Shown: piece after piece, positions 1 through 64,000 of the stretch
Layout of the letters: each line of letters opens with the position of its first letter
Numbering within the stretch: the first letter of the stretch is position 1
Origin: an uncultured Candidatus Micrarchaeota archaeon
GTDB taxonomy: Archaea > Micrarchaeota > Micrarchaeia > Anstonellales > Bilamarchaeaceae
Assembly (NCBI GenBank): GCA_963714085.1
Contig: OY970229.1
Span: 312,392 to 376,391 of the forward strand
Length of the DNA: 64,000 bases
Reading direction: 5' to 3'
Notes under the pieces: generated by a model
Databases searched by the model: none
Told to the model about the DNA's origin: nothing
Seen by the model: the letters and a program-made list of their open reading frames with translations, nothing else
Position numbers and translations under genes: made by a program

Positions 1-3000
1 TCGTTCGATGCCGTGGTCGAGTTGACCACCGACCCGTCGATGCTGAGGTTGCAAGAGGCGCTAGCGAAGAACTGGTCCGTCTCGTTGAAGGTGAAGCCCA
101 GTGCCGCGGAGGAGGTGTTGATGCCCATGGGCGGGGAAACCAGGATCACGGTCGGGCCCACCGTGGCGACCGCGAAGCCCCATGGCGGGCTTGTGCCGGT
201 ATTATTGGCGGCGTCCGTGCAGGAGACGCTCCAGGTGTGGGGGCCGCCGACCAGGCCGGAGTCGCCCATGTCAGCCGGTACGCTGTTCGTAGCGGTGGTC
301 GAGTTGACCTGGTAGCCGTCCATGGTGAGGTTGCATGAGGCCGTCGGGTAGACCGGGTCCGTCTCGTTGAAGCTGAAGTCCAATGACGTCGCGGTGGTGA
401 TGTTGTTGTTGGCCGGGGAGTTGAGGACGACCGTGGGCGCTGTGGTGACGATCGTGAAGTTCCAGGCCGCGCTCGGGCCGGTGTTGCCCGCGTTGTCCGT
501 GCACGCGACGTACCAGGTGTGGTTGCCGTCGGTGATGTTGCTGATCGTGAAGAGCGTCGGGGTGCTGTTCAGCACCGAGGGGTTGGTGCTGTTCTGGACG
601 TTGTCGAGGTATATGGAGCAGTTCGTCGCATTGGCCAGGTTGTCCGTCGCGGTGAAGTTGAAGCTGACCGTGGCTGAGTTGAGCAATGAGAGGTTGTACG
701 GGGAATTGAGGGCGACGCCCGGTGCCGTGGTGTCCACCGTGAAGCTCCTGGCCGCGCTCGTGTTCGTATTATTGGCCGGATCCATGCAGGTGACGTTCCA
801 GTAGTGGATCCCCTGGCCGAGAGGCGAGTCGCCCATCGAGGTCAGGCTGCTGTTCGCCGCCGTGGTGGAGTTGGCCACCGAGCCGTCCACCGTGAGGTTG
901 CATGAGGCGTTCGTGTAGAAGTGGTCGGTCACGTTGAACGTGAAGCTCAATGCCGTCGAGGACGTGTTGAGGCCGCTTATCGGCGAGACGAGGACCACCG
1001 ACGGGAGCGTGGATACGAGCGTGAAGTTCCATACCTGGCTCGTTCCAATGTTGCCCGCGCTGTCCGTGCACACCACGTACCAGGCGTGGCTCGCGTCGGT
1101 TATGTTGCTGATCGTGAAGAGCGTCGGAGTGCTGTTCAGCACCGAGGCGTTGGTCCTGTTCAGGTGGTTGTCTAGGTATATGGAGCAGTTCGTCGTGGAA
1201 GCCAGGTTGTCCGTCGCCGTGAAGTTGAATGCGACCGTGGTCGAGGTGGATATGGACTGGTTGGCCGGGGAGCTGAGGGTGACGTTCGGCGGCTCTGTGT
1301 CCACCGTGAAGCTCCTGGTCGCGCTCGTGCCCGTATGATTGGCCGCGTCTATGCAGGAGACGTTCCAGCTGTAGGCCCCCTCGCCCAGGCCGGAGTAGCC
1401 CAATGTGGTGAGGGTGTTGTTCAATGCCGTGGTCGAGTTGACCGGTATGCCGTTTATTGTGAGGTTGCATACTGCGCTTGCGAAGACGTCGGTCTCGTTG
1501 AAGGCGAAGTTCAGCGCCGTCGCCGAGGTGTTGAGGCCCATGACGGGCGAGCTCGGGACCACCAGCGGCGGGGTGGTCGCCACGGTGAAGCTGTTCGTCG
1601 CGCTCGTGTTCGTGTTATTGGCCGCGTTCGTGCAGGTGACGTTCCAGTAATGGACCGCCTGGCCCAGGCCGGAGTAGCCCAGCGTGATGAGGCTGCCGTT
1701 GGTCGCGGTCGTGGAGTTGCGGACCGTGCCGTCTATAGTGAGGTTGCATGACGCGTTCGGGTAGACCGGGTCGGTCTCGTTGAATGTGAAGTTGAGCGCC
1801 GTCACGGACGTGATGTTGTTGTTGGCCGGGGAGACCAGGGTGACCGTGGGCGCGGCGGTGTCGACCGTGAGGTTCCTTGCCACGCTCGTGCCGTTGTTGC
1901 CCGCGTTGTCCGTGCACACCACGTACCAGGTGTGGCTGCCGTCGTCTATGCTGCCTATCGTGAAGAGCGTCGGGGTATTGTTGGCGGTCAGGAAGTTGGT
2001 CTGGCCGAGGCTCCCGTCTATGTAGATGGAGCAGCTCATCCTTAAGGCCATGTTGTCCACAGCGGTGAAGTTGAAGACCACGGTGGCTGAATTGAAGACC
2101 GAGAGGTTGGCCGGGGAGTTGGGGGTGACGTTCGGCGGTGTCAGGTCCACGGTGAAGGTCCTGGTGAGGCTCTTGCCTACGAAGCTGACCGGGTTCACGC
2201 AGGAGACGTTCCAGCTGTGGGCCCCCTGGCTCAGGGGCGAATAGCCCATCGTGGTCAGGCTGCCGTTGGTCGCGGTCGTGGAGTTGCGGACCGTGCCGTC
2301 TATGCTGAGGTTGCACGTCTCGGTCGGGAAGACGTCGGTCTCGATGAAGACGAAGGGCAGCGACGTCGAGGACGTGTTGAGGCCCGTGGGCGGGGAGGAG
2401 AGGATCACCGTCGCGGCGGTGGTCCCGACTATGAAGCTCCTGGGACCGCTCGTTCCGGTGTTGTTCGCGCCGTTGGTGCAGGACACGCTCCAGGTGTGGG
2501 GGCCGCTCAGGAGGCCGGAATAGCTCATCGTGGTCAGGGTGTTGTTCGAAGCCGTGGTGGAGTTCCTGGACGTGCCGTCTATGCGGAGATTGCACGACGC
2601 GTTCGGGAACACGTCGGTCTCGATGAAGCTGAAGCTTATCGCGGTCGCCGAGGTGTTGAGCCCGTCGGCCGGGGACTGGGGCGCCACGCTCGGGCCGCTG
2701 GTGACCACCGTGAACGTCCTGGTCTCGCTCGTGCCGTTGTTGCCCGCGTTGTCCGTGCACGCGACGTACCAGGTGTGGCTGCCGTCGCCTATGCCGTTTG
2801 CCGAGAGTATGGTCTGCGTGTTATTGGCCGTGGGCGCGTACTGGCTGAAGGCGTTGTCGATGTAGAGCGAGCAGTTCATGGCGCTGGCCAGGTTGTCGGT
2901 CGCATTGAAGTAGAAGGATACCGCGGAGGAGTTGAACAGCGACTGGTTGGCCGGGGAGGTCAGGTTCACCGTCGGGGGGGCCGTGTCCACCGTGAAGCTC

Positions 3001-18100: not shown

Positions 18101-18413
18101 GGCTGTAGCTGAAGTTGAGGAAGAGGAACGAGTCCGGCGAGTTGGAGGTGGCTTCCACGAACCTGTTGATGTCTGCCGTGAGCACCGGCCTCCGGGCATT
18201 GATGCTGTTGGAGGAGCTGGTGCCGTTCTCGAAGAGCTTTATCTGCAGGGTGTTGTTCCCGGAATCGCCATAGCCGTATTCCGCGGCATGGTCGTAGAAG
18301 ATAATATATACGCGGTTGGGCGCCGTGCCCGCGACCCCGTAGGTGATGTTGCTGTCCACCCCGTTGGTGACTAGGTCCGACCACACGCCGGCGACCAGGT
18401 AATCCGAACCCTG
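1..18413 (-). CDS. Giant surface protein B, continuation after the frameshift (3'-partial; ~6,137 codons in-window). It contains a SUEL-like segment, 5 LamG cassettes, 2 beta-helix modules and >=32 Ig-like domains.
   Basis: This is the minus frame whose codon first bases are 2 mod 3. I checked codons at 17768, 8738 and 53, and all are in this frame. From 18413 the translation is collinear with gene A (QGSDYLVAGVWSDLVTNGVDSNITYG vs QDGDYLVAGLWTDLVSDGVNGTITYG). The ORF track lists no minus-strand ORF in this frame anywhere in 1-18413, as expected if there is no stop before the left edge. Upstream the frame is open only to a TAA at 18696-18698, and the only in-frame alternative start there is GTG 18450-18452. 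Confidence 0.85.
9191..11078 (-). other. Gene B: beta-helix module d plus cap
   Basis: CPVISTSGTFSPMNNLFGAPNDASEMAEGGTACVEINSSDVVFDCNGYNITMD (Cys codon 11076-11078). PbH1 turns follow, then the 2-Cys insert (YCQNNITDLIGSGYRPVYYSDEPVPWDGLDAAEIELCGASGS). The cap ends ...GTYGILQH. Confidence 0.7.
11079..12953 (-). other. Gene B: beta-helix module c plus cap
   Basis: CPVITSPGTYLQPSDYTGAPNDASEMPSPGAACVKIAASNVVYDCNGHTITND (Cys codon 12951-12953). PbH1 turns follow, then the 2-Cys insert (EDCQNTTVLNNTGSAGRPIYYSSEPVSWDGLDAAEIILCGADGS). The cap ends ...GAYGIFES. Confidence 0.7.
13115..17470 (-). repeat. Gene B: 5 LamG cassettes; the last four form a regular ~0.93-kb tandem cassette
   Basis: LV(L)(M/L)Y.FDN(L/F/V)S starts lie at about 17470, 16520, 15590, 14660 and 13730. 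Each cassette ends F(N/P/Q)G.(I/M)D(E/D)(V/L/I)R(V/I)YNR(S/T/A)L....(I/V/M).QLY. Shadow ORFs 15607..15825 and 16537..16755 are 930 nt apart. Confidence 0.8.
17495..17725 (-). other. Gene B: Cys-rich SUEL-lectin-like segment
   Basis: My translation is ITLSCPAGTVISGYTSKWGVGCGTCGGGGAGVDCGNCAIGSSSCTVTYGGGCWPYGPTYGDCDFRCYKPSAMNLTCG. It is positionally equivalent to gene A 59070-59305. Confidence 0.4.
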
Positions 18414-24751: not shown

Positions 24752-24772
24752 GCAGGTGTTACTTATACAGCA

Positions 24773-24975: not shown

Positions 24976-24990
24976 ATTTCAATCACCGGC

Positions 24991-43000: not shown

Positions 43001-46000
43001 CGGGCTCGTGCCGCTGTTGCTGGCCGCGTCGGTGCAGGACACGCTCCAGGTGTGGAAGCCGCCGGACAGGTTCGAGCCGCCAAGGGTCGTCGGGGTGTTG
43101 TTGGTCGCCGTTGTGGTGTTGACAGTTATGCCGTCGATGGTGAGGTTGCATGAGGCGTTCGTGTAGACCGGGTCCGTCTCGTTGAATGTGAAGTTCAATG
43201 CCGTCTGCGAGGTGGTGAAGCCGTTTGTCGGCGAGTTGAGGAACACTGTCGGGGCGGTGGAGATTACGCTCAGGTTGAAGGTCTGGCTCGTTCCAGTATT
43301 GTTGGCATGGTCGGTGCACTGGACGTACCAGGTGTAGTTCCCGTCGGCCATGCCGTATACCGTGAGGACGGTCGCCGTGTGGTTGGATGCCAGGGGATTC
43401 GTGAGGTACAGGGTGTCGTCGATGAAGAGGGAGCAGCTCATCTTAGCGGCCAGGTTGTCCGTCGCCGTGAAGTTGAATGGGACCGTGGATGTGCCGGAGA
43501 TGGTCGGGGAGTTGAGGGTCACGTTCGGAGGCGTCGTGTCCACCGTGAAGTTCCTCACTGGGCTGATGCCCGTATTGCTGGCGGCATCGGTGCAGGAGAT
43601 GCTCCAGGTGTAGAATCCGTCTGCGATGGGCGAGTAGCCCATGGAAGTGGGCGTGTTGTTCGTCGCCGTGGTGTAGTTGACCGATATGCCGTTGATCGTG
43701 AGGTTGCATAAGTCGGTCGTGTAGACCGGGTCGGTCTCGTTGAAGCTGAAGTTCAGCGCCGTTCTCGAGGTGATGAGGCCGCTGGCCGGGGAATTGAGGA
43801 CCACGATTGGGGCTTGGGTCACGATCGTGAAATTCCTGGTTTGCGAGGTCCCGGTGTTGTTCCCCCCGTCGATGCAATATACGTACCAGTCGTGCTGGCC
43901 TGCGCTTATGTTCGAGACCGGGAAATCGGTCGGGGTGCCGTTCTGAGTCGTCTCGTTGGTCGCGTTCAGCGAACCGTCTATATATAATGAGCAGTTCAGG
44001 GTGGGGGTCGTGCCGGTCGCGTTGAAGAGGAAGTCGATGGAGGTCGTGTTGGTGAGGTAGGCTTCAGGCGGATACATGAGGTCGACCGTGCCCCGGATCT
44101 CGTTGTCCTGGAGTATGGCGTATGTGCCTGCCGGGGCGAGGTTGGTGAGGCCGAGCGTGTCCGCGACGGTGTCCGGGGTGCCGTTCAGCCTGGTCCAGCT
44201 CGAGCCGTCGAACTGCCAGAGCTCGAAGTCGCTGTCGTTGTATCCGCCGAGCTCGGAGTCGTTCCAGCTCCACACGATGGAGTCTATCACCGGCGAGCCG
44301 CCCGTCGTGCTGATGTCCACGAACTTCTGCGCGAAGGAGGACCGAAGGGATGGTGAGGATCCCGGGTCGCTGGCCCAGGATATGGAGTACGATTGGCCGT
44401 CCTGTATGGTGTGGTTGATGGAGAGGTTTGTGTAGTTCTCCATGTCGCCCAGCGGGTTGTCGAAGACCAGGCCAGAGAGGTTCATGGTCATCGGGTAGCC
44501 GGAGTAGTCCTGCACCAGGACATCGTGTCTGTTGTTGGAGAAGTACATGCCTTCCACGGACGTGTTGTCGGAATTCACTATCATGAGGCCTTCAGCGAGA
44601 TTACCGAATACACTGTTGTTAGTGAAGTTATCGTAGTCCGAGACGCTCTCGACAATGATACCATATCCGCCGTTGCCATAGACACTGTTGCCGCTCGCCG
44701 TGTTATTGCTCGCGTCGGTCTCGAGGTGTAGGCCGTCCCCTGCGTTGCCATAAAGCGTATTGTTGATTATCTGGTTGAAGTGCGAAACGTATCCGAGCTG
44801 GAGGCCGTTCGAGGCGCCGCCATATATCGTGTTGTTGATGAATGTGTTGTTGTCGCAATATCCCCACGCGCGTATGCCGATATCCCGGCTTCCGTTCACC
44901 ACATTGCCCGATATCAGGTTATTGCTGTTGCCCATCTGGATGCCCCAGTAGTTTCCGGAGAGCGTGTTGTCCGTTATATTGTTGTAAGAGGCCGAGTTGC
45001 CCATAGCGATGCCGCTCAGGTTGTCGTCATATGCCGTGTTGTTCGTGACATTGTTGTAGCTCGAGCTGTCCGTGATGAGGATGCCGGCGTCAGAGCTTTC
45101 GTATACCACGTTGTTCGACAGCGTGTTGCCGTTGCTGTCGGAGAGCTCGATGTCCCTGTAGTTCCCGTAGACCGTGCTGCCCGTGATGCTGTTGTTGGAG
45201 TTCAACTGGAGCAGGATGCCGTCCCCGCTGTTGTTGTACGCCGTGCTGTTGACGACCAGGCTGTAGTCGCAGTCCTGCCCTATCGCGAGGCCGGCCTGCG
45301 AATCGCCGTTGTAGAACGTGTCGTTGATGAATTCGCCCCCGTCCGAATCGTACCACTCGTTGACGCCGGCCAGCGCGTCCCCGTATGCCACGTCGTTAGA
45401 TACGAGGGTGTTGTCCGTGTCCGAGAACAGTGCGGCGCCGTATTGGCCCGCGCCGGAGAGCGTGTCGTCCGAGATGGTGTCGTTGAGGCCTGAATCCAGC
45501 TCTATGTCTGCCAGGCTGCTGTCGAGGATCGTGCTGTTCGTTATGGTGGAATACTGGAGCGACAATCCCCTGATCCCGTACGTGTAGTTCGCGATGCCCG
45601 GGCAGTTCTGTATAGTGACATTCGTGAGCGAGGGATCGAGGCCGATGCCGTAGGTGGTGCCGTTCAGGCCGTCGTTGGCTATGCTGTAGCCGCCGCAGTC
45701 GTAGACCACGTTTGACGAGGCGATCTTGACACATGCCATGCCAGGGCTCGGCATCTCAGATGCGTCGTTCGGGGCGCCGAAGTAGTCGGAAGGCTGGACG
45801 TAGGTCCCGGGCTCGGTTATGATTTGGCAGTTGGTGACGTTGAAGGTCACGTTCCTCGCTTCGGTGCAGTTCTCGTTGCCGTTGTTGTCCGTCGCGCAGC
45901 CTTGATAGGCGTAGGTGTGCTCTCCGCTCTGCGACGAACCGGACTGGTTGATGGAGAACTGCCATTCGTTGGTGTCGTACTTGTTCAGGTTGGACTCGTA

Positions 46001-49000
46001 GAGCTGCTGGATCTCCGAGGGCGAGAGGGCGCGGTCGTAGACGCGGACCTCGTCTATGGAGCCGTTGAAGTACCTGAAGGGGGTGTTGGCAGCGCTCAGC
46101 TCATTGCCGATTGTGAGGTTGTCTTGCGGCGTATGGGGCGTGGCCGTGCTTGTTCCCGGTGTCTGGATGCCGTTCACATAGAAATGTGTCGTCCCGCCGT
46201 TCCTTGTCATTACGACGTAGTACCATTGGTCTGCTGAAGGGAACGTATAGCCGGAGTCGATACCCGCGACGTAGCCGTACAGCCCTTCCAGCTGGCTCCC
46301 ATTTATTATTCCGATCCCGTACCCTCCCAGATCATTTCCGTTGTATAAGACGAGCTGGTGGTCTGCTCCTTGATTTAGCTCCGGCTTTATCCAGGCCGAG
46401 AGGGTCCAGTCGTCTATTGCGCTCGTGGCACTGCTCGGGGCGAGGAGATAATCGCTGATCCCGTCGAACTGGTATGCGCCGCCGTACACTCCGTTGGGGA
46501 TCCATGTGGGGCAGTCCGGGTCGCTGCACGTGGCGTTGTTGCCGTACTGGCTCAGGTCGGTCACCTGGCTGCCGTTCTCGCCCAGGGCGGAGACGTTGTC
46601 GAAGTTGTACATCAGCACGAGGCTCTCGTCATACGGTGTGTAGTCCGTGCCGTTCCAGTCGTATGTGAAGACGCCCAATGGGAACGTGGTCTCATTCACG
46701 CTGATGTTTATCGGTATCGTGGAGTTGGACGTGACCGTGCCGGTGTCAGGGGTCGGCGGGCTGAATGCGATGAGCGGCGGCGGTGCCACGATCCCGTTCT
46801 GGAGTATTCCGTAGTCGCCTCCCGGGCTCAGGCCGCTCATGCCGAGCGTCTCCGCGACTGTGTCCGGGGTGTCGTTCACCATGGTCCAGCCCGATTCGTT
46901 GAACTCCCAGAGGCTGAACTTGGTCGGGTCGTATCCTGCGGAGCCGTTCCAGCTCCATACGATGGAGTCGATGGACGGCGAACCTTCCAGTGTGGAGATG
47001 TTCACGAACTTCCCCGCGAATGGATGGTAGCCTGCAGGGTGGGATCCTGGGTCGCTGGTCCAGTTCACGGAGTATCCATCTCCATACTCGACGCTGTCGT
47101 TTATGGATAACGTGGTGTAGTCCGCCATGTTGCCCAGCGGGTTGTCGAAGACCATGCCTGACAGGTTTATCGTGTTGGGGAAACCGATATTGTCGCGCAC
47201 CGTCAGGTCGGGGTTGTTGTCGGAGAAGTACATGCCCTGCACCGAGGTGTTGTCGGAGCCATCTATCCACAAGCCGGACATGTTGTTGCCGAACACGCTG
47301 TTGCCGACCAGGGTATTGTCGCCGCCCCCGCCGACGTGTATCCCGCTTTGGTTGTTACCGGACGCGTCGTCGTAGAGCAGGGTGTTGTTGTACCCGCCGA
47401 TGTAGAAGCCTTCGTATGTGTTGCCGGACGCGTTGTCGTAGAGCAGGGTGTTGTTGTCCCCGCCGATGTCGAAGCCGCTCGCATAGTTGTAATTGCCGGA
47501 GGCTGTGCTGCCGGTGATGTTGTTATCCGATCCGTACATCAGGAAGCCGTAGTCGCGGTTATCGCTCGCGTTGATCCCGGAGAACTGCGTTTGCGATATA
47601 CCGTATATGTAGAGGCCGACGTCACGGTCGTTGGTGGCGGTATCGTTGACGAAGCTGGAGTTAGAGACAGAATACAGGACGAAGGTGGCATCGCCATCAC
47701 CAGTGCCGGAATCGTTGGTGGAATTGAATGCGTTTACGTCACCTAGGTCAAAGCTTATCCAGTCGTTGTTCGCGACGTCGTTTAGGGACGTGACATTGTC
47801 GCTTGATTCTATCTCGAATCCTATGGAGTCGTTGTTTGCGGCATCGTTGAGGTATGTGGCGTTGTCGCTTTGTTCCGTATCGAAGCCCAGGTGATTGTAG
47901 GATGAGGAGACATTGGCGACTGTGGTGCCGTTGCTGTAGTACAGTATGAGTCCGTCGTTGTTGAGGGTGTCGGAGCCGTTGACCACGCTGTTCGTGATAC
48001 TAGAGCCGGTCGCATTGCAAAGTTCAATCTCGGCGGTGTCCTGCCCGTCCAATGAAACGGGTTCATCGGAGTAATATATCTGGCGGCCGTCCGAGCTGGT
48101 CGTATCCGTGATGTTGTTCTGGCAGTCGTCCGGGGAATTCGGGTACACGTAGAGGTCGTACTGCCCGTTTTCCATGGCGGTGTTGTTGTACAAGGTATTC
48201 TGGCTGGACCCGGTGAGCGAGATGCCATAGTAGCTGTTGTTGTCGAAGCTATTGTTGGACATGGTATTGTTGTACGACGACTCAAACTGGGCGCCGTCGT
48301 TACGGCTGTTTTCGATGTCATTGCCGGAGATGTCGCTGTCGCTCAATGAACCATAGATGCCGTATCCGTTGCCGACCAGGGTATTGCCGGAGATTTCGTC
48401 GCCGCTCGATGTGGGGAGATAGATGCCCTCGTCGGAGGCGTTGTAGATGCCATTGCCGTATAGGCCTTCGTTGTTGGAATTCTCGATATCGAAACCCGCC
48501 CAGCTGCTGCCGTATATGGTGTTGCCGGTGAAGTTGTTGTAATCCGAGCCGCTTAGGACCACGAAGCCTGCGTATCCCTCGTCAGAGAGATTGTTGTCAG
48601 ATAGCAGGTTATCGCTGCTTGCGCTGAGCTGGATGCCAGAATAGTCCCGGGTGAGGGTATCGTTCGTGAGGTTGTTGTCAGAGCCGCCGTTGAGCATGAT
48701 GCCGGCCGAGCCGGACGGGCCGCTGCCCGACACCGTGCTGTTGATTATGGCCGAATCGGTGTCGGACTCGGCCCAGAGCCCGTAAGTGTAGCCGGAGATT
48801 TGGCAGTTCTGGACCGTCACGTTGTCTAGCGACGAGTCGATGGCGATGCCGTAGGTCGTGCCGACGATGCCCACGTTCGTGATATTGTGGCCCTGGCAGT
48901 CGAAGACCACGTTTGGCGAGGATATCTTGATGCACGTGTTCCCCCCGTCCGGCATCTCCGAGGCGTCATATGGCGCGCCGACATAGTCGTTCGGCATGTT

Positions 49001-52000
49001 GTAGTAGCCCGGGGAGGTTATCTCCTGGCAGTTGGTGGTGTTGAAGGTGACGCTCCTCGTCTCGGTGCAGTTCTCGTTCGCGTTGTCGTCCGTCGCGCAT
49101 GCGTAATAGGTGTAGTTGTATTCCCCGCTCACCAACGGGCTCGGAGCCTGGTTGATGGAGAACTGCCATTGGCCGGTAGCGTACTTGTCGAGGTTGGACT
49201 TGTAGGACTGCTGGACCTCGGATGGCGAGAGGGCGCGGCCGTAGATGCGGACCTCGTCCATTGAGCCGTTGAAGAATTCGCTTGGCTGTGCCCCGTCAGC
49301 GCCTATGAAGAGATTGTTCTGCGGATTTATGGTTCCCGAGAGGGAGCCATTCATATCGAGCAGCCCATTGACATAGGTGTTCACGTATGCCCCGTCGTAG
49401 GTGAGAACGACGTAATTCCATTGGCCCGCGTTGAGTTTGATATTTCCGTCATCGGAGAGACCGCCCGCGTTTGTCCAGATATATATTTCCAGTCTGCCGT
49501 CGCTCGATGGAGCGAATCTTAGGATGTAGGCGCCGTTGTTTTTCACTATCTCCCCGTAATCCCCAAAGCTCGAGGGCTTGACCCATGCGGCGATGGTCAT
49601 CTGGCTGGCCAGCGTTGGAGCGGTCGGAACCGAGAGGTACTCACTCATCCCGTCGAAGGCGTAGGCGCCGCCGTACACTCCGTCCGAAGTCCAGGTCGGG
49701 CAGGTGCCGGGGGCGCAGGTGGCGTTGTCGCCGTACAAGCTCAGGTCCTCGACCGAATTCGGAGCGAGAGCGGAGGAGTCGTTGAAACCGTAGTACAGGA
49801 CGAGCCCGTCCGTATCCGGGAAGTTGAAATTATAGAGGTCGTTCACCTGGCTCGGGGAGAGCGTGTAGTTGTAGATGCGGAGGTCGTCTATGGCGCCCGT
49901 CCAGTAGTTCGCCGGGTAGAAATTCTGGCCGATGTTTGCGGTCCCTGAAGCGAGGTCCCAGACCACGGGCGTGGGACCAGCGACGAGCGTCCCGTTCTCG
50001 TATATCTCTGCGTTGGCCCCGTCATAGGCCAGGCACATGTGCTCCCATTCGTTCTGGACGAAGAAGTCCGGGACGGCCATGACGTCCCCGCCCCATGATT
50101 CGATGGTCAGGTTCGTCCCGCTCCTGATGATGCGGAGCGTGGAGTTCCCGTAGTTCATGGGGCCCATGGTGAGCGCGACCACACCAGGCGGGCTCACGTC
50201 CGACGCATTGAGCCACATGCAGATTGTCCTTGCCGCGGTGCCGCTCGGGATCGGGGGGTTCGTCGTATTCGTATCGAAGCTCAATACCCCTCCGTTGAAA
50301 ACGTAGGCGCCCCCTTGGACGCCGTCCGGGGTCCATGTGGGGCAGGAGCCGCTGCATATGGCGTCGTTGCCGTTCCCGCTATCGTCGGCCACGCTCCGGC
50401 CGAAGGCGGAGGAGTCGTTGAAATCGTAGTACAGGGCGAGCCCGCTGGTGTTGGTGAAACTGCCACTGTAGAGGTCGCTCACCTGGCTCGGGGAGAACGC
50501 GTAGTTGTAGACGCGCAGGTCGTCGATGCTTCCGTTGAAATTGTCCGTGATGCCATAGTAGTCCAAGGCGCCGACAAAATAGGAGTTGCTGGAGCCGAAG
50601 ATGTCCGTATAGTTTCGCGTTCCTGCCGGGACTCCGTCTATATAGAAATCCGCCTCCGAGCCGTTATACGTGACTGCGACGTGGTGCCACCCGGAGGTGT
50701 CTGTGAGAGTGCCTGTGGAGGCGACATCACTAATACCGACATGGGTAAGATGCAGGTTCCCACTTGAATCGAAGAACACCGCCCAGCCGCCGTAATCGCC
50801 CCCGAATATCGCCTGGGTGTTGCCTATGCTGTCCCTCTTGACCCAGGCGCTGAACGTGAAGGGGATGCTATCGAAGTTGTGGTTGGTATTCAGGTAGTCC
50901 TGCACGCCGTCGAACTGGTACGCGCCGCCGGATTTCCCGTTCGGCGTCCACGTCGGGCAGGAACCCGGAACGCATGCGGCATTGTGCCCGTTCCCGCTCT
51001 CGTCGGCCACGCCGTTGTGGAGGGTCCCGGAGGAGTTATCGAAGGAGTACATGAGCATGAGGCTGCTGTCGTAAGGCGTGAAGTCCGTGCCGTTCCAATC
51101 GTAGGTGAACTGGCCGAGCGGGTACGTGGTCTCGTTCACGCTGACGTTTATCGGTATGGTCAGGTTGGACGTGGTTATGCCGCTGTCAGGGGTCGGCGGG
51201 CTGAACGCGATGGCCGGCGGAGGCGCCGCGAGCCCGTTCTGGAGTATGGCATAGACACCTCCCGGGCTCAGGCCGCTCATGCCGAGCGTGTCTCCGACCG
51301 TGTCCGGGGTGTTGTTCACCGTGGTCCAGCCCGATTCGTTGAACTCCCAGAGCTGGAACTTGGTCGGGTCGTATCCTGCGGAGCCGTTCCAGCTCCAGAC
51401 GATGGAATCTATGGATGTCGGAGTACTGCCTTGTTGGGAGATGTTCACGAACCTCTGCGCGAACGAGTAGCGGCCTGGTGGAAGGGCGGCCGGGCTGCCG
51501 GACCAGTTCACGGCGTATTGTTCGCCGTCATTCACCGTGTCGTTGATGGAGAGGTTGGTGTAGTTCTCCATGCCGCCCAGCGGGTTGTCGAAGATGATGC
51601 CGGAGAGGTTGATTGCGAGCGGGGCGCCGAAATCATCTTGCACCTGCAGGTCGTTGCCATTGTCGAAGAGGTGCATGCCCTGCACGGAGCTGTTGTCGGA
51701 GTCGCGTATCAGCAAGCCGGAATAGGAGCTGTTGAATGAAGTGTCGTTGAGCAGGACGTCGTTGGGTTGCCGGTTTACGAGGAAACCTTGCTGGCCATTG
51801 CCGGACGTGACATCATTGGTGAAATTATTCGAGTCTCCCGAGTATATAAGGAAACCAGCATAGAGATTGTCGGACGAGGAGACGTCTATGACGTTGTCCG
51901 ATTGCGAACCGTCCGCAGTGAAGCCGTTTTGGCTGTTGGTCACGTTGATTCCGGAAAAGAGGCTTTGCGTGGTCTCCATCGAATCGAAGCCCCAGGCCGC

Positions 52001-55000
52001 ACCGCTTGCGGTATCGTCGACGAAGCTGGAGTTGGAGACGCGGTATGTAGCGAAACCATCCAGGTAATCACCGGTGACACCGATGGCAGAATCGTTGGTG
52101 AAATTGGCTCCGTTTGAATTTTCGATCCAGAACCCGTAATAACCATAATTGGTAGTGATGTCGTTATCTACGACGTCGTTGAGGCATGTGGCGTTGTCGC
52201 TCCATTCTATGTAGAAGCCGCCGTTGCTATCGTTGTCCGCGACATCGTTGGTGTATGTGGCCGCGTCGCTCCAGTATATGTCGAAGCCATGATAATTGTA
52301 AGACGAAGAGGTATTGGCGACCGTGGTGCCGTTGCTGTAGTACATTATGAGTCCGTCGTTGTTGAGGGTGTCGGAGCCGTTGACCATGCTGTTCGTGACG
52401 TTCGAGCCGCTCGCGCCGCAAAGCTCTATCTCGGCCGCGTCATAGCCGTCCCATGAGACCGGGTCGCTGGAATAATATATCTGGCGGCCGTCCGAGCTGG
52501 CCGTATCCGTGATGCTGTTCTGGCAGTCGTCCGGGGAAGTCGGCACCACGTCAAGATCATACTGCCTGTTCTCCATGGCAGTGTTGTTGTACAGGGTGTT
52601 CTGGCTCGACACGGTCATGTAGATGCCGGAGTTGCCGTTGTTGTCGAAGTCATTGCCATAGACGATAGTGTTGTTGGATGCTGAGGCCAGGATGATGCCG
52701 TACTGCCCATTGTCGGAGGCGTTGTTGTTGTACACGCTGTTGTTGTCGGACGACTCTATATCGATGCCGGCCACACCGTTGTTGTCGGCGGTGTTGTTGG
52801 AGAGCTGGCTGAAACTGGCGTAGTTCAGGTAAAAGCCGTCATTGGAATTGTTGAATGCGATGTTCTGGGTGAGATTGGTCCCGTTCACGGGATAGTTGTT
52901 GTCCTGGACTAAGTAGAAACCGTTCCCGTTGCTATAGGCGGTATTGCCGCTCACCGTGCCGTTGTCCGCCGCATACTCGAAATAGATGCCGGCGCCGCCG
53001 TTGCCGTAGGCTGTGTTGTTGACCAGTTGGTTGAAGGTGCAATGGTCCCCGATTCCAAAGCCCCATGCGCTATTGCCATATGCGGTGTTGTTGATGAACG
53101 TGTTGTCGTCCGCGCTCCACCACGCGACGACGCCCCCTTCCGCGTTCCTATATGCCACATTGCTTGATACAGTGTCGTAGTCGTCTCCGGCCAACCGCAT
53201 GCCATCGTTGCCGTTCCCATAGAGCGTATTGTCTGTGACATTGTTGTTGGAGCCGCCGTCCAGGAAGAGCCCATACCAGTGGTTGCCGAACGCCGTGACG
53301 TTCGTTATGGTCGAATAGCTGACGAACTGCGTCTTGACTCCGAATGTGTAGTCCGAGATGCCCGGGCAGTTCCGTATGGTCACGTTCGTGAGCGAGGGGA
53401 CCGCCGCGATGCCGTAGGTGACGCCGCTCACACCGGTGTTGGTTATGTGATAGCCCGCGCAGTCGAACACCACGTCGGACGAGTTTATCTTCACGCAGGC
53501 CATGGCACTGCCATCTAGCATCTCCGAGGCGTCGTTCGGCGCGCCCGTGTAGTCGTTCGTCATGGAATACGAGCCCGGCGAGGTTATGACCGGGCAGTTG
53601 GTGGCGTTGAAGCTCACGCTCCTCGTCTCGGTGCAGTTCTCGTTGCCGTTGTTGTCCGTCGCGCAGGCCTGGTAGGTGTAGTTGTACTCGCCGCTCGGCA
53701 GACCGGTGGGGCCCTGGTTGGCGGAGAACTGCCACTGGCCCGGAGCGTATTTGTACAGGTTCGACTCGTAGAGATCCTGGACTTCCGAAGGCGAGAGGGC
53801 GCGGTCGTAGACGCGGACCTCGTCTATGGAGCCGTTGAAGTACCAGTAGGCCCAGCCCCAATCCTCATATACCTGCCGCCCGATGTACAAGGGACTATCA
53901 GCGGTCGTGAATGCATACGGCTGGGATACGAGGAAGGCGCCATCGCCATACAGGAGCACATCCGTACCGTTGTACTCGGCTACGACGTGGTGCCATAGGC
54001 CATCGTTCACCTTGAAGGATGTGGAGACGTCGGATTCATATCCTACGAGATAAAGATCGCCCGGACCTGCGACCGAAACTTCCAGATCGAATGCGTTGCC
54101 CTGACCAACGCTGCCCCAGCCAGCCAGACTCTGTCTGCCCGTGCCCGTGGTTTTCACCCAAAGGGAAAGGGTTCTTGGGCTGGAACCGGTTATCCCGACG
54201 TCATTGGAGCTTGAAAGATAATCGCCTATGCCGTCGAACGAATAGGCGCCGCCGTACCTGCCGTCAGACGTCCATGCCGGGCAGGAGCCGAAGGCGCACG
54301 TGGCATTGTCGCCGTACAAGCTCACGTCCTCAATCGAATTCGGAGCGAGAGCGGAGGAGTCGTTGAAATCGTAATAAAGGACGAGCCCGCTGGTGTCGGT
54401 GAAATTGCCGCTGTAGACGTCGTTCACCTGGTCCGCGGAGAGCGAGTAGTTGTAGACGCGGACGCCGCTTATGGAGCCGTTCCAGTGCCAGTTGAGGTCA
54501 CCGGACAACCCCACGAAAGCGTTTCCGATCTGGACGTTCCAGCTTTCAGGAGTGGGGGGCGTGATGTTCTGGCCGTCCGAATAGACTTCGGCGTCGGTCC
54601 CGTTGTATGTGAGGCAGATATGCGTCCAATTGTTCGAGCCGACGTCACACCAGTAGTTCGTGACAAATATCTCGGACCCGGTCTGGCCCACTCCGAGATC
54701 GCAGTTTTCCCAGCGTTTGCCCATCCATATGCCCGAGGAAGTATACCAGTCACCATAGGATATGATTGGCTGTACGTCGTCCACGGCGCTCGTGTCGGTG
54801 TCGTTCGCCCACGCGCACACCGTGAACGGAGCGCTGCCGGATGGAAGGACGCCAGGATTGCTGATGTTCAGGAAGTCATCCGCTCCGTCGAACTGGTATG
54901 CGCCGCCATACGCTCCGTTGGGGGTCCACGTCGGGCAGTTCACGCCCGGGGTGCACGTGGCGCTGTTGCCGTTACCGCTCTCATCGGCCACGTTCGGACC

Positions 55001-58000
55001 AAAGGCGGAGGAGTCGTTGAAATCGTAATAGAGGACGAGCCCGCTGGTGTTGGTGAAACTGCCGCTGTAAAGGTCGTTCACCTGGTCCGGGGAGAGCGAG
55101 TAGTTGTAGACACGGACATCGTCTATCGCGCCGTTCCAGCCCCAGTAATTGTCATTAGAGGTTCCCACGTAAGCAACGCCTGGCTGCGTGTTCCAGCTCT
55201 CCGGTGTCGGGCCGACGGCCACCTGGCCATCCACGTAGAGCGTCTCGTCCGTGCCGTTATACGTGATGCAGATGTGCTTCCACACGTGGGTGCCGACACT
55301 GGTCCAGAAACCAGGTATCTCCAGGGAACCGGTTTGTTCGCCGGCGTCTAAATTGTCGGCATAGCCGCTGAAACCCAGGCTGTTGTCGCCGTTTCCATAG
55401 GTCAGTACGGTCCCGGATGATCCGAGCTGGTATATGTTGGCCCAGGCGCACATCGTGACCGGGGCGCTGCCCATCGGAAGATTGGCGGCGTTGCTGAAAT
55501 CCAGGTGCTCGTTGTTTTGGAAATAATAGGCGCCTCCGTACACCCCGTCCGGGGTCCACGCCGGGCAGGTCGAGCCCGGGGTGCATATGGCGTTGTTGCC
55601 GTTCCCGCTCTCATCGGCCACGCCGTTGTGGATAATCCCGGAGAAGTTGTCGAAGTTGTACATCAGCACGAGGCTGCTGTCATACGGCGTGAATACCGTG
55701 CCGTTCCAGTCGAAGGTGAACCGGCCGAGCGGGAATGTCGTCTCGTTTATGCTGATGTTTATGGGTATCGTGGAGTTGGACGTGACCGTGCCGGTGTCAG
55801 GGGTCGGCGGGCCGAATGCGATGGCCGGCGGCGGAGCCACGATCCCGCTCTGGAGTATGGCATAGGTGATCGTATTACCTGGCTGGGGAGCGAGGTTCGT
55901 GAGGCCTAGCGTGTCCCCGACCGTGTCCGGGGTGTTGTTCAGCATGATCCAGTTAGAGCCGTCGAACTGCCATAGCTGGAACCTGGCGTCATAGTATCCG
56001 CCGAGTTCGGAGGGGCTCCAGCTCCAGACGATGGAGTCTATGGAAGGCGAGCCGCCCAGCATGGAGATGTTCACGAACTTCTGCGCGAATGGGCGGTAGC
56101 CTGCCGAAATGGATCCGGGGTTGCTGGCCCAGCTTATGGAATACGACTCTCCTGCGTTGAAGGTGTCGTTTATCGCGAGCGTGGTGTAGTTCTGCATCCC
56201 GCCCAGCGGGTTGTCGAAGACCAGGCCGGAGAGGTTCATTGTGAACGTAAAGCCGGCGGGCTGGACCCAGAAGTCGGGAGTATTGTTGGAGAAGTACATG
56301 CCCTCCACGGACGTGTTGTCGGAATCATATATTGTAAGGCCGGCGTTCGAGTTATTGGATGCGGTATTGTTGGCGAAGATGGTCCCTTCCACCGGACTCC
56401 CGTCCGCCATCGAGGAGAAGCCGTACTGGTTGCCAGAGGCGACATTGCCGCTTAGCGTGTTATTGTCCGAGGAGTCCGTGAAATAGAAGCCGCTTCCGGT
56501 GTTGTCATCTGCCGTGTTGTTGATAAGCTGGTTGAAATCGCAACCGCCATCCATCACGATGCCGCGCATGCCGTTGTCGTCCGCCGTGTTGTTGATGACC
56601 GTGTTGTTGCTCGAGGACAGCCATAGGAATACACCGGCTCCCGACGAGGTTCCAGACGCCGTGTTGTCCGATATCACGTTACCGGTGTCTTCGACTATGA
56701 AGAAGCCGGCGTTCACGTTTCCGGACACATTGTTGGCAGAGAGCAGGTTGTCGTTGCTGCCGGAGAGATAGATGGCGTTGTAGTTTCCGTAGGCCGTGTC
56801 GTTCGTGACGTTACTGTCCGAGCAGCTGTTGAGCTCGATGCCGTTTCCGCTGTTGTCGTAGGCGACGTTGCCGCTTAGCGTGTTATCGCTTGCGCCGCTA
56901 TCCAGGTGGAAGCCATCATTGGAGTTGTTGAATGCGATGTTGTTGGTGAGATTTGTCCAGGTCACCGGGTCGGAGTAGCCGGTGGTCAGGTAGAAACCGT
57001 TCACATTGCCATAGGCGGTATTGCCGCTCACCGTGCAGTTGTCCGACCCGTCCTCGAAATAGAAGCCGTAGTTGCCGTTGCCATAAGCCGTGTTGTCGAT
57101 CAGCTGGTTCAGGACGGAACCGCCTCCGAACTCGAAGCCGCCCTCGCTGTTGTTGTACGCGGTGTTGTTGGTGACTGTGTTGTTGTCCGCGCCCCACCAC
57201 GCGTTTAGGCCGCGCGAGTTCGCGTACAGCACGTTGCCGGATATCAGGTTGTCATCGGCTCCGGAGGCGAGGAAGATGCCTATGTCGTTTCCGTAGGCCG
57301 TAACGTTCGTGACGTTGTTGTCCGAGCCGCCGTGCAGTTCGATGCCGTTCGAGCCGCTCAGCATCGTGCTGCCGGTTATGGCCGAATCGGTGTCGGACTC
57401 CGCCCAGACCCCGTACGAGTAGCCGGACATCTGGCAGTTCTGGACCGTGACGTTGCTGAGCGATGAATCGATGACGATGCCGTAGGTGGTGCCTCCGGTG
57501 CCGTCGTTCGTGATGTTGTGGCCGTTGCAGTCGAACACCACGTCGGATGATGTTATCTTCACGCAGGCCGTGCCGGGATATATCATGTCGGAGGCGTCGT
57601 TCGGGGCGCCCAGGTAATCACCCGCCATGACGTACGAGCCAGGGGAGGTTATCGGCTGACAGTTGGAGATGTTGAAGGTCACGCTCCTTGTTTCAGTGCA
57701 GTTCTCGTATCCATGCGTGTCCAGCGCGCAGCCCTGGTAGGTGTAATTGGGTGTCCCCCTCAGGACGTCCGGGGGCTGGTTGATGGTGAACTGCCATTGG
57801 GTGGAGTTGTACTTGGCGAGGTTGGACTCGTAGAGCTCCTTTATCTCGGCGCCGGACAGGGAGCGGTTGTAGACCCTGACTTCGTCCATTTTTCCATTGA
57901 AGTATTCCCCCCACGCGGGATTGCCTCCCAGAACGAGTTTGAATGGCGAGTCCTGCCCGCTCACCGGGTATGGTCCGTAGGATACCCCGTTCTTATAGAA

Positions 58001-61000
58001 TGTCACGTCGGACTGGGTGTAGACCGCGGCCACCTGCTGCCACTGGTCCAGGCCCACCGGAGCGGTCTGCTGCGAATAGCCGAAGAATCCGCCGGCGGTC
58101 CCTACGTACACCGACCAATTGGCTGTCCCCTCTTCTACCAGGATCTCGCGGCCATGGTTGCCGTCATCGTCGCTGAACACGGTCTGCCGCGACCCGGTGT
58201 TCACTACGGTGGGGTAGACCCATGCCACGAATGTCATGTCCGGCATCGCCGAGGGCTGGATGTCCAGATTGGTGCTCATACGGTCGTTGCCCAAAAAGTC
58301 GCCGCCGTTGCCGTCGAACACGTATGCGGCGCCGTACTTCCCTTCAGGTGTCCAGTCCGGGCAGGAGCCGGGGCTGCAGGTGGCGTTGTCGCCGTACATG
58401 CTCTCGTCCGGAATCATGACCGAATTCCTCGGGGCGGAGGAGTCGTTGAAATCGTAATGCAGGATCAGCCCGTCCGTGTCCGGGAAGTTGGCGTTGTATA
58501 AGTCGCTCACCTGGCTTGGGGAGAGCGAATAGTTGTAGACGCGCAGGTCGTCCATGTAACCGTTGAAAAAATAGCCGCCGCCGGCCCACGCGCCGACCAG
58601 ATAGTCGCCCGTGGAGCTGAAGTTGTCGGTATAAGGCACGGTCCCTGCCGGGATTCCGTCTATATAGAAGTCCGCGTCGGAGCCGTCGTCCGTGACTACG
58701 ATGTGATGCCACAGGGTGTCCGGGATGCTGGCGTTTGAAACGATATGGTCAATACCTATCTTGGTGAGTTGCACCGTGCCGTCACCGCCGATGACCACCC
58801 CCCACCCGTTAGTGTTTCCGCCCATGAGTATTCCTTGGTCGCCGCTTAAACCGACCCTCTTCACCCATGCGCTTACAGTGAATGGATAAGTGCCGAAATT
58901 GGTGTGGGTGTCGAGATAATTGGTGCCGTCGAATGAATATGCGCCGCCGTATACTCCGTTGGGGGTCCATGTCGGGCAGGAGCCGGGGGCGCATGTCGGG
59001 TTGGGCGCGTTATTGAAGTCGTACATCGCCACCAGGTCCGGATTGTACAGCGTGTCGTTACGTGGTGGCAAGCTTGCGCAGGTCAGGTTCAGGTAGCTCG
59101 GCTTGGGTACGTAGGGGCTGCAGTCCGTCTCGCCGCATACACCGCCTTCTTCGATAGTAAGGCCGTACCTGACCGAGCACGAGCTGGCCCCCAGGGTGCA
59201 GTTCCCGCAAGGCACGCCGGCCCCTCCGCCGCATGCGGTGCCGATCCCCCATAACGATGAATACGAGGATATCGCGCTCCCTACGGGGCAGGTCAGCGAG
59301 AGGGTGTCGGCTTCGCCGCCGCTTTCGGAGATGGTGGTGATGGAGGGTGGGCCCGCGGTTCCGTTCCAGTCATAGATGAACGAGCCCAGCGGGTAGGTCG
59401 TCTCGTTCACGCTGATGTTTATGAGTATAGTCGGATTGAACGTGACCGTGGCGTCAGCAGGGGTCGGAGGGCTGAAGGCTATCTCCGGCAGCAGCACGGA
59501 GCCGAGGATGCCGAACTCGCTCCCGAAATCTGTGATGTTGGCGAACACGTAGCCGTCGATGCTGTCCTGTCCGTACGGTGACGAGAAGTCCGCGGGGTTC
59601 GTGTCCCATCCGCTCGCGTCGTATCTGGCCATGGAGAGCGGGCTCCCGAGGCGCAGGGCGTCCGCCGGGGTGTAGCTCAGGTTGAGGAAAAGGTAGGAGT
59701 CCGGAGCGTTGGCTGTCGCCTCCACGAACCTGCCGGAGGTGGCCAGGCCGTACGGGTCCGGGGCGGTGCTGGCGACCGAGCCCCCGGAACCGTTCTCGAA
59801 GAGCTTTATCTCGAATGTGTTGTTCCCGAACGTGTCGAAGCCGTCGTATTGCGCGTTGTGGTCGTAGGATATGATGAACACGCGGTTCGGTGAGACGCCC
59901 GCGGTCCCGTACGTGATGGTGCCGTTCACGCCGTCGGAGACGAGGTCGGTCCACAGCCCTGCGACCAGGTAGTCCCCATCCTGGGTTATGCCCTGCGAGC
60001 TCATGTAGTCCTCCTCGCAGCATGCGCTCTCATCCGAGGTTACGGACTCGTTGCTCAGGTAGATGAATCCGTTGGTGCTTATCTTGATGTGGCTGTTGGA
60101 CCTCCCGAAGAGCACCACGTTGAACGGTAGCGTTATGTCGTCGCTCACGGCCTCGTCGCCGTACATCGACCCCATGGGAGTGTCTATGGGCGTGATGGTG
60201 GTGGGGACGAAGGACGGGATCATGCTTCCGTTCGTTTCCTGGTAGTAGGCCACGGAACCTGCATAGCCAACCGTGGTCGGGCCGAAGGACGTGATGCTTT
60301 TCGGGCCTCCCGTGCCGTCGGATATGCCCGTGACCTTGTCGTTGCTGCCGTCGCTCGATAGTATGTCTATCTCGACGCTCCGGGAGCCGCTGATCTGCTG
60401 CGGCCGCCCGGACTCCCCGACGTTCACGTCCTTAGAATCGAAGGACACCCGGTCGTTGCCCATGGTCATGTTGTCTACGATGTTGCCCATGGAATCCGAG
60501 GTCGAGGAAAAGGCCCAGATGGAGTTGCCCGACGCGTTCCAGCCGCTGAAAACGTTGTCCTGCGAGGAATCGAGGAAGATACCCACGCTGTCGTTGGACG
60601 TCGCGCCGTTGGTGAAGCTGTCGTTGTCGGACTGATAGGCATAGACTCCGTAGCTGTAGTCCGATATCCCGGGGCAGTTCTGCACCGTGACGTTGGTGAG
60701 CGGACCGTCGAGCAGGATCGCGTAGGTGGGGCCGGCCATGGCGTTGTTGGTTATGTTGTAGCCGTCGCAGTCGAAGAGCACGTTGGATGCGGTTATCTCC
60801 ACGCACGCCGCGCCGCCGTCCGGCATCATCGAGGCGTCGTTCGACGCACCGAAGAAATCGTTCGTCATGTTGAATACGCCGCTCGTGCTTATCACCGGGC
60901 AGGGCTGGAAGCGCTCGAGTATTCCGTAGGTGCCAACCGGGTTGAGGTTCGTGAGGCTGAGCGTATCCGTGAATGTGTTGAGCGCCGCGCTGGCATTGCT

Positions 61001-64000: not shown

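Follow-up and report, generated by a model that had tools for sequence, protein, structure and literature searches.

Two tandemly duplicated giant genes of an archaeal chromosome and their probable adhesin-like surface proteins

Background

What kind of proteins are encoded where two neighbouring genes fill 64,000 nucleotides (nt) of DNA, and how did such genes arise? The question was raised by positions 312,392 to 376,391 of contig OY970229.1 (assembly GCA_963714085.1), in the following called the window, in which two genes, A and B, follow each other on one strand. Proteins above 10,000 amino acids (aa) are rare in prokaryotes and rarer in archaea. A first, sequence-only reading of the window had described a tandem pair of paralogous genes for giant surface proteins, which, if the host is archaeal, would be a two-gene system that it could not assign to any named family. 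The present analysis makes it likely that the locus consists of two tandemly duplicated archaeal chromosomal genes, whose giant products would be heavily N-glycosylated, fibrillar proteins of adhesin-like character on the cell surface, anchored in the membrane as type-I proteins. The gene pair takes up at least 65.7 kb, about 4% of a contig of 1.57 Mb, a cost which argues that the product matters for meeting surfaces or other cells.

Results and discussion

Reading frames of the two genes

Gene A lies on the minus strand (25013..64000), as do all long open frames of the window, and runs over 12,995 sense codons without a stop (+ 25016-64000) to its stop codon at + 25013-25015. The codon count given before and the open 5' end at the window edge were confirmed; N-terminus and signal peptide lie beyond the window, and the length of at least 12,995 aa is a lower bound. 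The chance of such a stop-free frame, calculated from the base composition of the coding strand, is about 1e-168, and the other two frames of the same strand hold 516 and 196 stops. Pfam domains were found along the whole of gene A, and the frame, for which a break-up into ordinary-sized genes had been considered, was kept over 39 kb. An exhaustive search of 1.84 billion representative proteins gave no 100% match to gene A. Opposite the giant genes, antisense open frames of 300-525 codons occur on the plus strand, e.g., at 60362-61936, 14943-16121 and 20984-22153. No domains were recognized in them, and the most plausible cause is the biased codon usage of the C-rich coding strand (plus-strand GC skew +0.05 to +0.24).

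Gene B starts with an ATG at + 24751 on the minus strand and encodes the signal peptide MHRRGNVTFVALLLALLFSLACVPLSHAQ. As assembled, it is not a single frame: a first piece, B1 (18371..24751, minus strand), ends after 2,126 codons at a stop at + 18371-18373, and a second piece, B2 (3..18695, minus strand), is open from + 18695 over 6,231 codons to the window edge. Paralog A is collinear across this break, its aa 1047-1340 matching the first frame and aa 1337-1638 the second. In the DNA alignment gene A reads GGCATAACCCAGG and gene B GGCATAACCAGG; one C is absent, leaving CC at + 18413-18414 (18413..18414, minus strand) where the paralog has CCC, a deletion of 1 nt. The reading frame of P0251, the ortholog in a close relative, is unbroken across the site. 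Restoring the base gave exactly 8,250 in-window codons. Thus, the earlier figure of about 8,250 codons holds for gene B as a span, but not as an open frame, which the deletion splits into 2,126 and 6,231 codons.

Both pieces are represented by public proteins, P0252 and P0253, which are encoded together with the smaller relatives P0261, P0286, P0023 and P0040 on one contig of 1,571,539 bp (NCBI, ENA). P0252 (2,126 aa) equals B1 residue for residue, and P0253 (6,703 aa) equals B2 from a GTG at + 18386 over all 6,127 in-window residues. Past the window, P0253 continues for 575 aa with two immunoglobulin (Ig) domains, a poly-Gly linker, the same anchor domain as in gene A, a transmembrane (TM) helix and a tail. 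The corrected gene B thus encodes 8,825 aa with 35 Ig domains. At the DNA level, an exact 60-mer taken from the end of the window had no match among the genome and metagenome contigs searched.

The 6,231 codons after the break are stop-free, for which the chance by composition is about 1e-80, and 6,806 codons are open to the gene end; therefore the lesion must be an indel of the assembly or else an inactivation of very recent date. In the second case gene B would be a genuine pseudogene and the locus one giant gene with a decaying duplicate, of which only A and a truncated, secreted B1 of 2,126 aa would be functional. This is a serious possibility, although we hold it only tentatively. It is in line with public gene calls from this contig that show the frameshift as well, with the missing signal peptide of the B2 call, and with the nature of the CC/CCC site, which does not form a slippery heptamer and whose length would not suffice for phase variation. 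The unbroken remainder of the gene, however, would make any inactivation extremely recent, and the fragment-like state of P0040 and P0023 is fitted equally well by indel errors of a long-read assembly. On these last grounds, a programmed frameshift or phase variation at the break was rejected. In this assembly only the first 2,126 aa of copy B could be made. If the frameshift is real, it shows the fragility of such genes.

Outside the window, P0040 encodes a signal peptide, DUF333, a papain-like peptidase C1, Ig and beta-helix domains, and an Arg/His-rich tail that looks out of frame; P0023 begins mid-domain, inside a beta-helix cap. These fragments hint at either assembly indel errors or several decaying genes.

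Domain architecture, anchoring and glycosylation

Strong Pfam matches in both genes were of three kinds only: Laminin_G_3, with a ConA-like lectin fold, Beta_helix/NosD, and the Ig-like Big_13, with best E-values to 1e-162 for Laminin_G_3 and to 1e-116 for Big_13. A match to CarboxypepD_reg was weak (27.8 bits vs a cut-off of 32.3). The Pfam scans covered A, B1 and residues 1-3231 of B2; the remainder of B2 was recognized as Ig rod by a hidden Markov model (HMM) from the window's own copies, and the domain map of gene A was likewise drawn with HMMs built from these copies. The matches to NosD and to the haloarchaeal Tat-fimbria subunit TafC (PMC11821415) were not accepted as family assignments. 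NosD_copper_fam reached 17-29 bits vs a cut-off of 300, only the shared beta-helix repeat matching, and TafC reached 131 and 44 bits vs a cut-off of 410, only model positions about 182-362, the LamG-like part, being covered.

The head of gene A (aa 1-6650; 44051..64000, minus strand) alternates 8 beta-helix regions with 9 Laminin_G_3 lectin-like domains and includes a single-copy nidogen-like (NIDO-like) module at aa about 1200-1500 (59501..60403, minus strand). It is followed by a rod (aa 6651-12654; 26039..44050, minus strand) of 64 Big_13 Ig-like domains with a period of 94 aa and a super-period of three domains (846 nt). The C-terminal anchor region (25016..26038, minus strand) has the order of a PPPPPPSG(11) linker, CarboxypepD_reg-like beta-sandwiches flanking a Cys-rich stretch, a TM helix (+ 25097-25162) and a basic Pro-rich tail; the weak CarboxypepD_reg-like domains and the 12 Cys of this stretch lie in the last approximately 320 aa. 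The layout recurs in P0003, P0251, P0261, P0265 and P0286. Anchoring by PGF-CTERM and archaeosortase was discarded: the C-terminal 340 aa gave no NCBIfam match and contain no PGF motif.

Gene B is built in the same way. B1 carries the signal peptide, five Laminin_G_3 domains and two beta-helix regions, and B2 carries five Laminin_G_3 domains, two large beta-helix regions and the rod (3..9146, minus strand), with 33 Big_13 Ig-like domains in the window and 35 in the full protein. The NIDO-like module is divided between the pieces, its first half lying in B1 and the rest in B2. A signal peptide is present in B and TM anchors in A and P0253; the earlier reading as giant secreted, membrane-anchored surface proteins of adhesin or glycocalyx type was supported. 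The signal peptide of gene B holds a twin arginine (MHRRGNV, 24730-24751, minus strand), the residues after it fitting the consensus of twin-arginine translocation (Tat) poorly. For a protein of this size, Sec is presumed as the export route.

The head cassettes open with the conserved motif P.IAFSPPTP..NISVNE..DWNGT, whose first copy in gene B immediately follows the point where the signal peptide is cleaved. Of all head modules, the NIDO-like one is the most conserved between A and B (62%). It shows a pattern typical of nidogen-like (NIDO) domains, ISTNGFI / W.DL / APNR / FQIKLFE. Database searches with it gave weak matches, of which one is annotated as nidogen-like and one has PF06119. It had no Pfam match at E<=1, pattern scans of GTDB genomes gave no confirmed relative, and its AlphaFold model (mean pLDDT, the predicted local distance difference test, of 54) found no Foldseek match better than E = 0.06. 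In a sequence search of solved structures, no match was obtained for the NIDO-like module, a beta-helix block or the C-terminal domain. When metagenomes were scanned with the C-terminal domain, only 6 loci were obtained, none of them a tandem pair of giant genes.

A cassette of gene A (aa 5744-6650) was modelled with AlphaFold at a mean pLDDT of 68.5, its beta-helix part (about 380-760) reaching mostly 82-96 per block of 10 residues. Foldseek matched this beta-helix to the Det7 tailspike gp208 (an endoglycosidase), the mannuronan C-5 epimerases AlgE4/AlgE6, a Klebsiella phage capsule depolymerase and an alpha-1,3-glucanase, and the LamG part to the receptor-binding domains of botulinum and tetanus toxins and to a carbohydrate-binding module. 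Whole-model TM-scores were low, and the identity to the matched enzymes was 9-18%. NCBIfam added a weak match to the AlgG epimerase. No glycoside hydrolase, lyase or peptidase family passed the Pfam threshold in the scanned parts of A or B.

Both proteins are acidic and rich in Ser, Thr and Asn. Gene A encodes 773 N-glycosylation sequons (NxS/T) vs 349 +/- 15 in shuffles, and gene B 457 vs 195 +/- 11, an enrichment of 2.2-fold, for which the repeats inflate the z-scores; the reversed motif was not enriched in either protein. By these counts the sequons are evidently under strong selection. In a truncated homolog, P0003 (L001 3-2294), the guanine plus cytosine (G+C) content was 60.5% vs 51% for the rest of the contig (2295-12160). 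The high G+C content of these genes reflects amino-acid and codon composition, not the genome.

Paralogy, repeats and soundness of the assembly

Genes A and B are paralogs with 40-54% aa identity and a common domain vocabulary. The partly collinear order seen before was found again in a block of 1,169 aa with 53.7% identity, and the rods are about 50% identical over approximately 3,000 aa. Within the Ig rods the super-repeat is apparent from an identity of 60% at lag 3 vs 42% at lags 1 and 2. Rod units are nearer to units of their own rod than to those of the other (76% vs 68% in A, 73% vs 70% in B), which would fit independent growth or homogenization after the duplication. The C-terminal alignment differs from the remainder: the final approximately 100 columns (A 25016-25315, minus strand, vs P0253), comprising TM helix and tail, are 98-100% identical, the rest about 50%. 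This suggests gene conversion or strong constraint on the anchors.

Giant lengths may also result from chimeric or over-expanded repeat arrays, and several features give reason to consider such an artefact: the rods are long tandem arrays with a period of 846 nt, one exact repeat of 166 bp is present, and the source is a metagenome-type contig known from its assembly and not from reads. Against this, repeat copies are only 70-74% identical in DNA, at most 82% over 200 bp or more, and 98% of the 31-mers are unique, 2% recurring. Furthermore, the reading frame is held over the 39 kb of gene A, the triplet register is regular throughout the rods, the heads (20 kb and 15 kb) are no simple arrays, and relatives have proteins of 3,478 to 7,282 aa with the same domains. 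An origin of the giant lengths in the assembly is thus very unlikely. Wholesale chimerism is unlikely because the repeat copies are divergent and the 31-mers mostly unique, whereas a local miscount is possible near + 37806 / + 39495. There the longest exact repeat, the one of 166 bp, lies in the gene A rod (37806-37971 and 39495-39660), with a distance of two triplet units between its copies. It contrasts with the general identity of 70-74%, probably arose by local conversion, and marks the only site at which the copy number may be wrong in the assembly.

Tandem duplication and archaeal host

From the stop codon of gene A to the ATG of gene B the distance is exactly 261 nt, as had been reported together with the common strand, and the G+C content of this region is 47%. 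A tRNA-Arg(GCG) gene without encoded CCA (24901..24976, plus strand; ARAGORN; Rfam 54.6 bits) is divergent from gene B and has a TATA-like TTATAATA ahead of it at + 24869-24876. On the minus strand, a TATA-box-like TTTTTAAAT (24772..24780) stands 25 nt before the ATG of gene B, no Shine-Dalgarno sequence being present, and fits a putative archaeal promoter of a leaderless mRNA. The same box is found base for base upstream of P0251.

P0251 is the single ortholog on L012, a JGI contig of 500,611 bp from a relative. The protein has 2,347 aa as called and 2,369 aa from its true ATG (L012 9935-9937), is 57% identical and was the second-best match. Its true start reads MHRRGSATFILLLLALLFGLACVPISHAQ, the DNA upstream is nearly identical to that of gene B, and promoter and signal peptide are the same. 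It consists of two beta-helix regions, a NIDO-like module, one Laminin_G_3 domain, one beta-helix, two Ig domains and the anchor. Directly past its stop, on the opposite strand, lies a tRNA gene (L012 17081-17154) with 74/74 identity to the tRNA-Arg gene of the window, in the same position and orientation; the C-terminal coding DNA adjoining the tRNA gene is about 85% identical between window and L012.

The intergenic region of the window combines both flanks of this single gene. Positions + 24978-24869 match L012 17078-17186 (98/110), the 3' flank of the relative with tRNA gene and TATA-like box, and + 24837-24749 match L012 9849-9937 (76/89), its 5' flank through the ATG. Between the DNA like the 3' flank with the tRNA and the DNA like the 5' flank, a junction of 31 nt remains (24838..24868). 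On the evidence of these alignments, such a composite region is what the tandem duplication of a single gene plus its flanking DNA leaves behind. The pair is accordingly traced to a tandem duplication because the intergenic DNA equals the relative's 3' flank plus its 5' flank, and the single ortholog stands beside an identical tRNA gene. The junction in the gap and the identities of 40-54% agree with the earlier description as a paralogous tandem pair. A two-gene system, as had been proposed in addition, was not substantiated: gene B is frameshifted as assembled, its own promoter region and a divergent tRNA gene lie in between, and nothing shows a cooperation of the two genes.

The host was assigned to the archaea by the gene content of the related contigs. 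L012 and L013 encode aEF-1beta, an S13-S4-S11-RpoD cluster, S8e and an intein-bearing MCM; S4 and RpoD of the relative had their best solved-structure matches in Thermococcus and Pyrococcus proteins. Contigs with more distant homologs are also archaeal. From the synteny with L012 and L013 we infer an archaeal host, because the window shares with the relative an identical tRNA gene and homologous flanks, and the ortholog resides on a contig with aEF-1beta, S13-S4-S11-RpoD, S8e and MCM. The archaeal host considered in the sequence-only reading is thereby upheld. The named database homologs belong mostly to DPANN archaea, especially Micrarchaeota, but also Woesearchaeota and Nanoarchaeota. Homologs listed by a word-indexed search were all shorter than about 1.75 times the query length, which is read as a length limit hiding giant relatives; the exhaustive search of representative proteins revealed relatives up to 7,282 aa.

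Tandem giant genes inserted next to tRNA genes are known from the aloposons of Heimdallarchaeum (PMC8813620). The window likewise has tandem giant genes and a tRNA gene directly downstream of the first, and may thus be thought to carry the cargo of an aloposon-type integrative mobile element. We regard this as most improbable. The tRNA gene is intact, no partial tRNA copy is visible, and the intergenic region is explained by a simple tandem duplication. The relative has the same tRNA gene beside a single ortholog of ordinary size in a housekeeping neighbourhood, with DnaK-DnaJ-GrpE upstream and aEF-1beta and ribosomal proteins downstream. Radical SAM, MarC and AAA_14 genes were also found upstream of P0251, and no gene of ParA/MinD type was called there. 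Searches with the tRNA, the C-terminal domain and the NIDO-like module revealed no relatives in a viral contig collection.

Under the duplication model, a single gene for approximately 2.4 k aa, still present in the close relative, would have been duplicated together with its flanks. Both copies would then have grown by cassette duplication and amplification of the Ig array. After the split of the lineages, this growth would amount to about 4- to more than 5-fold in length, and from 2 Ig-like domains to 64 in A and 35 in B. The model predicts upstream of gene A a 5' flank like that of gene B (GAGCAAGAATCTTTTTAAATGCTGTATAAGTAA.ACCTGCATG) and a signal peptide beginning with MHRRG. With a single ortholog about one-fifth as long in a close relative, giant size appears able to evolve quickly by duplication and array amplification; the readable architecture of B, the clear duplication junction and the small ortholog together document a rapid birth of giant genes.

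A more far-reaching proposal, which as a whole we consider possible and still rather doubtful, concerns rank and age. Gene A may rank with the largest protein-coding genes found in archaea, and possibly first if Asgard is set aside. The pair may have been born within a shallow divergence (identical tRNA, about 85% identity of flanking DNA) from a gene for approximately 2.4 k aa by one tandem duplication, a 17- to 32-fold amplification of the Ig array and an increase in the number of lectin/beta-helix cassettes. In that case the birth and turnover of giant genes could be dated at this natural example, with B perhaps already decaying.

Smaller members of the family were observed at other loci. 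P0265 (L013 18146-23418) and P0132 (L010 11011-14760) are located beside or few genes upstream of genes for a type IV pilus-like T2SSE ATPase and T2SSF platform protein. L011 1-24005 (ENA ERZ25039480 contig_117966) contains four genes on the same strand for 4,424+, 1,334, 2,571 and 1,736+ aa, all with Laminin_G_3 and beta-helix domains and separated by 33-145 nt; the last also has a Peptidase_S8 domain. L011 thus has either a tandem array of related genes or a single larger gene that stops have interrupted.

Proposed function

The most likely role of the proteins, deduced from domain types and architecture, would be the multivalent binding, and possibly cutting, of polysaccharides or glycans on other cells or surfaces, as fibrillar adhesins. 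The N-terminal signal peptide, found in B and expected for A, would direct export, and the C-terminal TM helix with its basic cytoplasmic tail would hold the protein in the membrane. The part nearest the membrane would consist of a pair of small beta-sandwich domains, a knot rich in Cys and a Pro/Gly linker. Ig domains of bacterial Ig-rod adhesins contribute about 4 nm each. At this spacing the Ig-like rods would extend over about 250 nm (64 domains, A) and about 140 nm (35 domains, B). At the far end a head of 5,000-6,600 aa would present repeated Laminin_G_3 lectin-like and right-handed beta-helix cassettes together with one nidogen-like module. Of the traits by which fibrillar adhesins are recognized, three were found in the family: a secretion signal in B and P0251, an Ig-like stalk of 64 or 35 domains, and an anchor opposite the binding region in A and full-length B. 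Since the architecture of gene B is complete from signal peptide to membrane anchor, it provides a model open to tests, in which a fibre of 140-250 nm bears about ten lectin/beta-helix cassettes at its tip.

Binding by the distal domains is a prediction from the resemblance of fold and family to lectins and carbohydrate-active beta-helices. The pilus-locus neighbourhood of the smaller members would fit an adhesion role. For DPANN archaea, contact with the host has been proposed as the purpose of LamG expansions, and LamG genes are linked to pilus loci in the micrarchaeon Mia14 (PMC5498576).

The resemblance of the beta-helices to enzymes leads to a different proposal, in which they act as depolymerases or epimerases in a tethered array, with the LamG domains as carbohydrate-binding modules, for the digestion or remodelling of polymers or cell walls in nutrition or invasion. 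The best fold matches are indeed enzymes (tailspike endoglycosidase, capsule depolymerase, alpha-1,3-glucanase, mannuronan C-5 epimerases), the weak NCBIfam match to AlgG points in the same direction, and giant proteins of the bacterial Omnitrophota have been proposed to degrade prey cell walls (bioRxiv 10.1101/2023.11.21.568195). However, the low whole-model TM-scores and the identities of 9-18%, the lack of any glycoside hydrolase, lyase or peptidase family past the Pfam threshold in the scanned parts of either protein, and the common occurrence of NosD-type beta-helices in non-enzymatic archaeal surface proteins make an enzymatic main role quite unlikely.

The dense glycosylation sites may instead indicate a protective coat. 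As proposed for halomucin, the proteins would form a hydrated, heavily glycosylated canopy round the cell, lectin and beta-helix modules holding the cell's own polysaccharide. The extreme, 2.2-fold enriched sequon density, the acidic composition rich in Ser, Thr and Asn, and the share of about 4% of the 1.57-Mb contig, suggestive of a bulk structural role, are consistent with a coat; halomucin itself is a secreted archaeal protein of 9,159 aa that surrounds the cells (PMC4378361). The layout of a rod with a distal head and a single membrane anchor is, however, that of an adhesin reaching out, unlike a mucin-like polymer of low complexity. Its domains have folded beta-structures, pilus loci adjoin the genes of smaller paralogs, and the close relative makes do with a protein of about 2.4 k aa. 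A coat is thus an unlikely, though not negligible, main function, and fibrillar adhesins remain the preferred reading.

Some observations count against the interpretation of the locus as two archaeal genes for giant anchored adhesins. As assembled, gene B cannot yield rod and anchor, and the public call of B2 begins inside a domain and without a signal peptide. In the rod of gene A, the count of triplet units could be wrong by two if short reads were assembled across the exact repeat of 166 bp (+ 37806, + 39495). Finally, the palindromic ATTATAAT (24848-24895) has sigma-70-type matches on both strands, 11/12 and 10/12, and is at the same time a TATA-like box about 29 nt before the tRNA gene; an 11/12 sigma-70 consensus fits the upstream region of the tRNA gene, and promoter motifs alone are ambiguous on the domain of life. 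A bacterial origin drawn from the 11/12 match was rejected in view of the archaeal synteny.

Comparison with known systems

Among bacterial adhesins, SiiE of Salmonella (PMC6272769) is comparable as a very large extracellular protein in which a rod of tandem Ig-like domains bears binding modules away from the cell. SiiE, however, is exported by type I secretion and stays attached to the outer membrane, whereas the window proteins have a presumably Sec-type signal peptide (seen in B) and a C-terminal TM anchor, dense N-glycosylation sequons and a head in which LamG and beta-helix cassettes are repeated.

In DPANN archaea and methanogens, surface proteins of LamG-like and beta-helix/PKD type (Mia14, PMC5498576, and Jing et al. 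2002 as cited in that paper) share the domain families, the proposed cell-cell contact and, in relatives, type IV pilus loci. They comprise hundreds to few thousand aa, and the host studied here has a contig of at least 1.57 Mb.

The giant genes Otus and Ephialtes of aloposons (PMC8813620) are also two adjacent giant genes on one strand beside a tRNA gene. They encode 3,000-6,000 aa, whereas the window pair consists of much larger paralogs from a local duplication of a chromosomal gene, with no signs of integration. Aloposons further have four conserved upstream genes including a MinD/ParA-like ATPase; no ParA/MinD gene is present upstream of the ortholog on L012.

The SPEARE proteins of Nanohaloarchaeota reach up to about 8.5 k aa. 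As giant archaeal surface proteins thought to mediate contact with another cell (PMC6642349, PMC10266531) they resemble the products of the window, but their defining features are domains of serine proteases and restriction endonucleases, and no protease or nuclease family appeared in the Pfam scans of A, B1 and B2 residues 1-3231.

Halomucin of Haloquadratum walsbyi (9,159 aa; PMC4378361, PMC1544339) is a giant secreted, surface-associated archaeal protein with a predicted signal sequence. By its description it is set apart as mucin-like and surrounding the cell, whereas the window proteins are modular rods of beta-domains with a TM anchor, gene A being at least 40% longer; none of the named database matches of the window proteins was a halomucin. 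As a benchmark of size, halomucin is indeed exceeded by gene A, but it no longer marks the upper end: archaeal proteins above 10,000 aa have been reported, few in number and mostly from Asgard (bioRxiv 10.1101/2023.11.21.568195).

The closest counterparts are the huge archaeal proteins of a survey of proteins of at least 5,000 aa, in which Laminin_G_3 was by far the commonest domain of the archaeal members and CarboxypepD_reg with Big_13/Big_3_3 formed a second architecture, the function of these proteins being 'not understood' (PMC11573180). The window proteins share with them the archaeal origin, a length beyond the survey's limit of 5,000 aa (12,995 aa or more for A, 8,825 aa for the corrected B), Laminin_G_3, the Big_13 arrays and a weak CarboxypepD_reg. 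The earlier statement that no named family applies therefore holds for curated whole-protein families, but the mixture of Laminin_G_3, Big_13 and CarboxypepD_reg is a published hallmark of huge archaeal proteins. Unlike the surveyed proteins, the window genes fuse both architectures and add beta-helix cassettes and a NIDO-like module; gene A lies far above the threshold of 5,000 aa, and a tandem duplicate with a small ortholog was not described in the survey. The giant pair belongs to a known kind of huge archaeal proteins and combines both known layouts.

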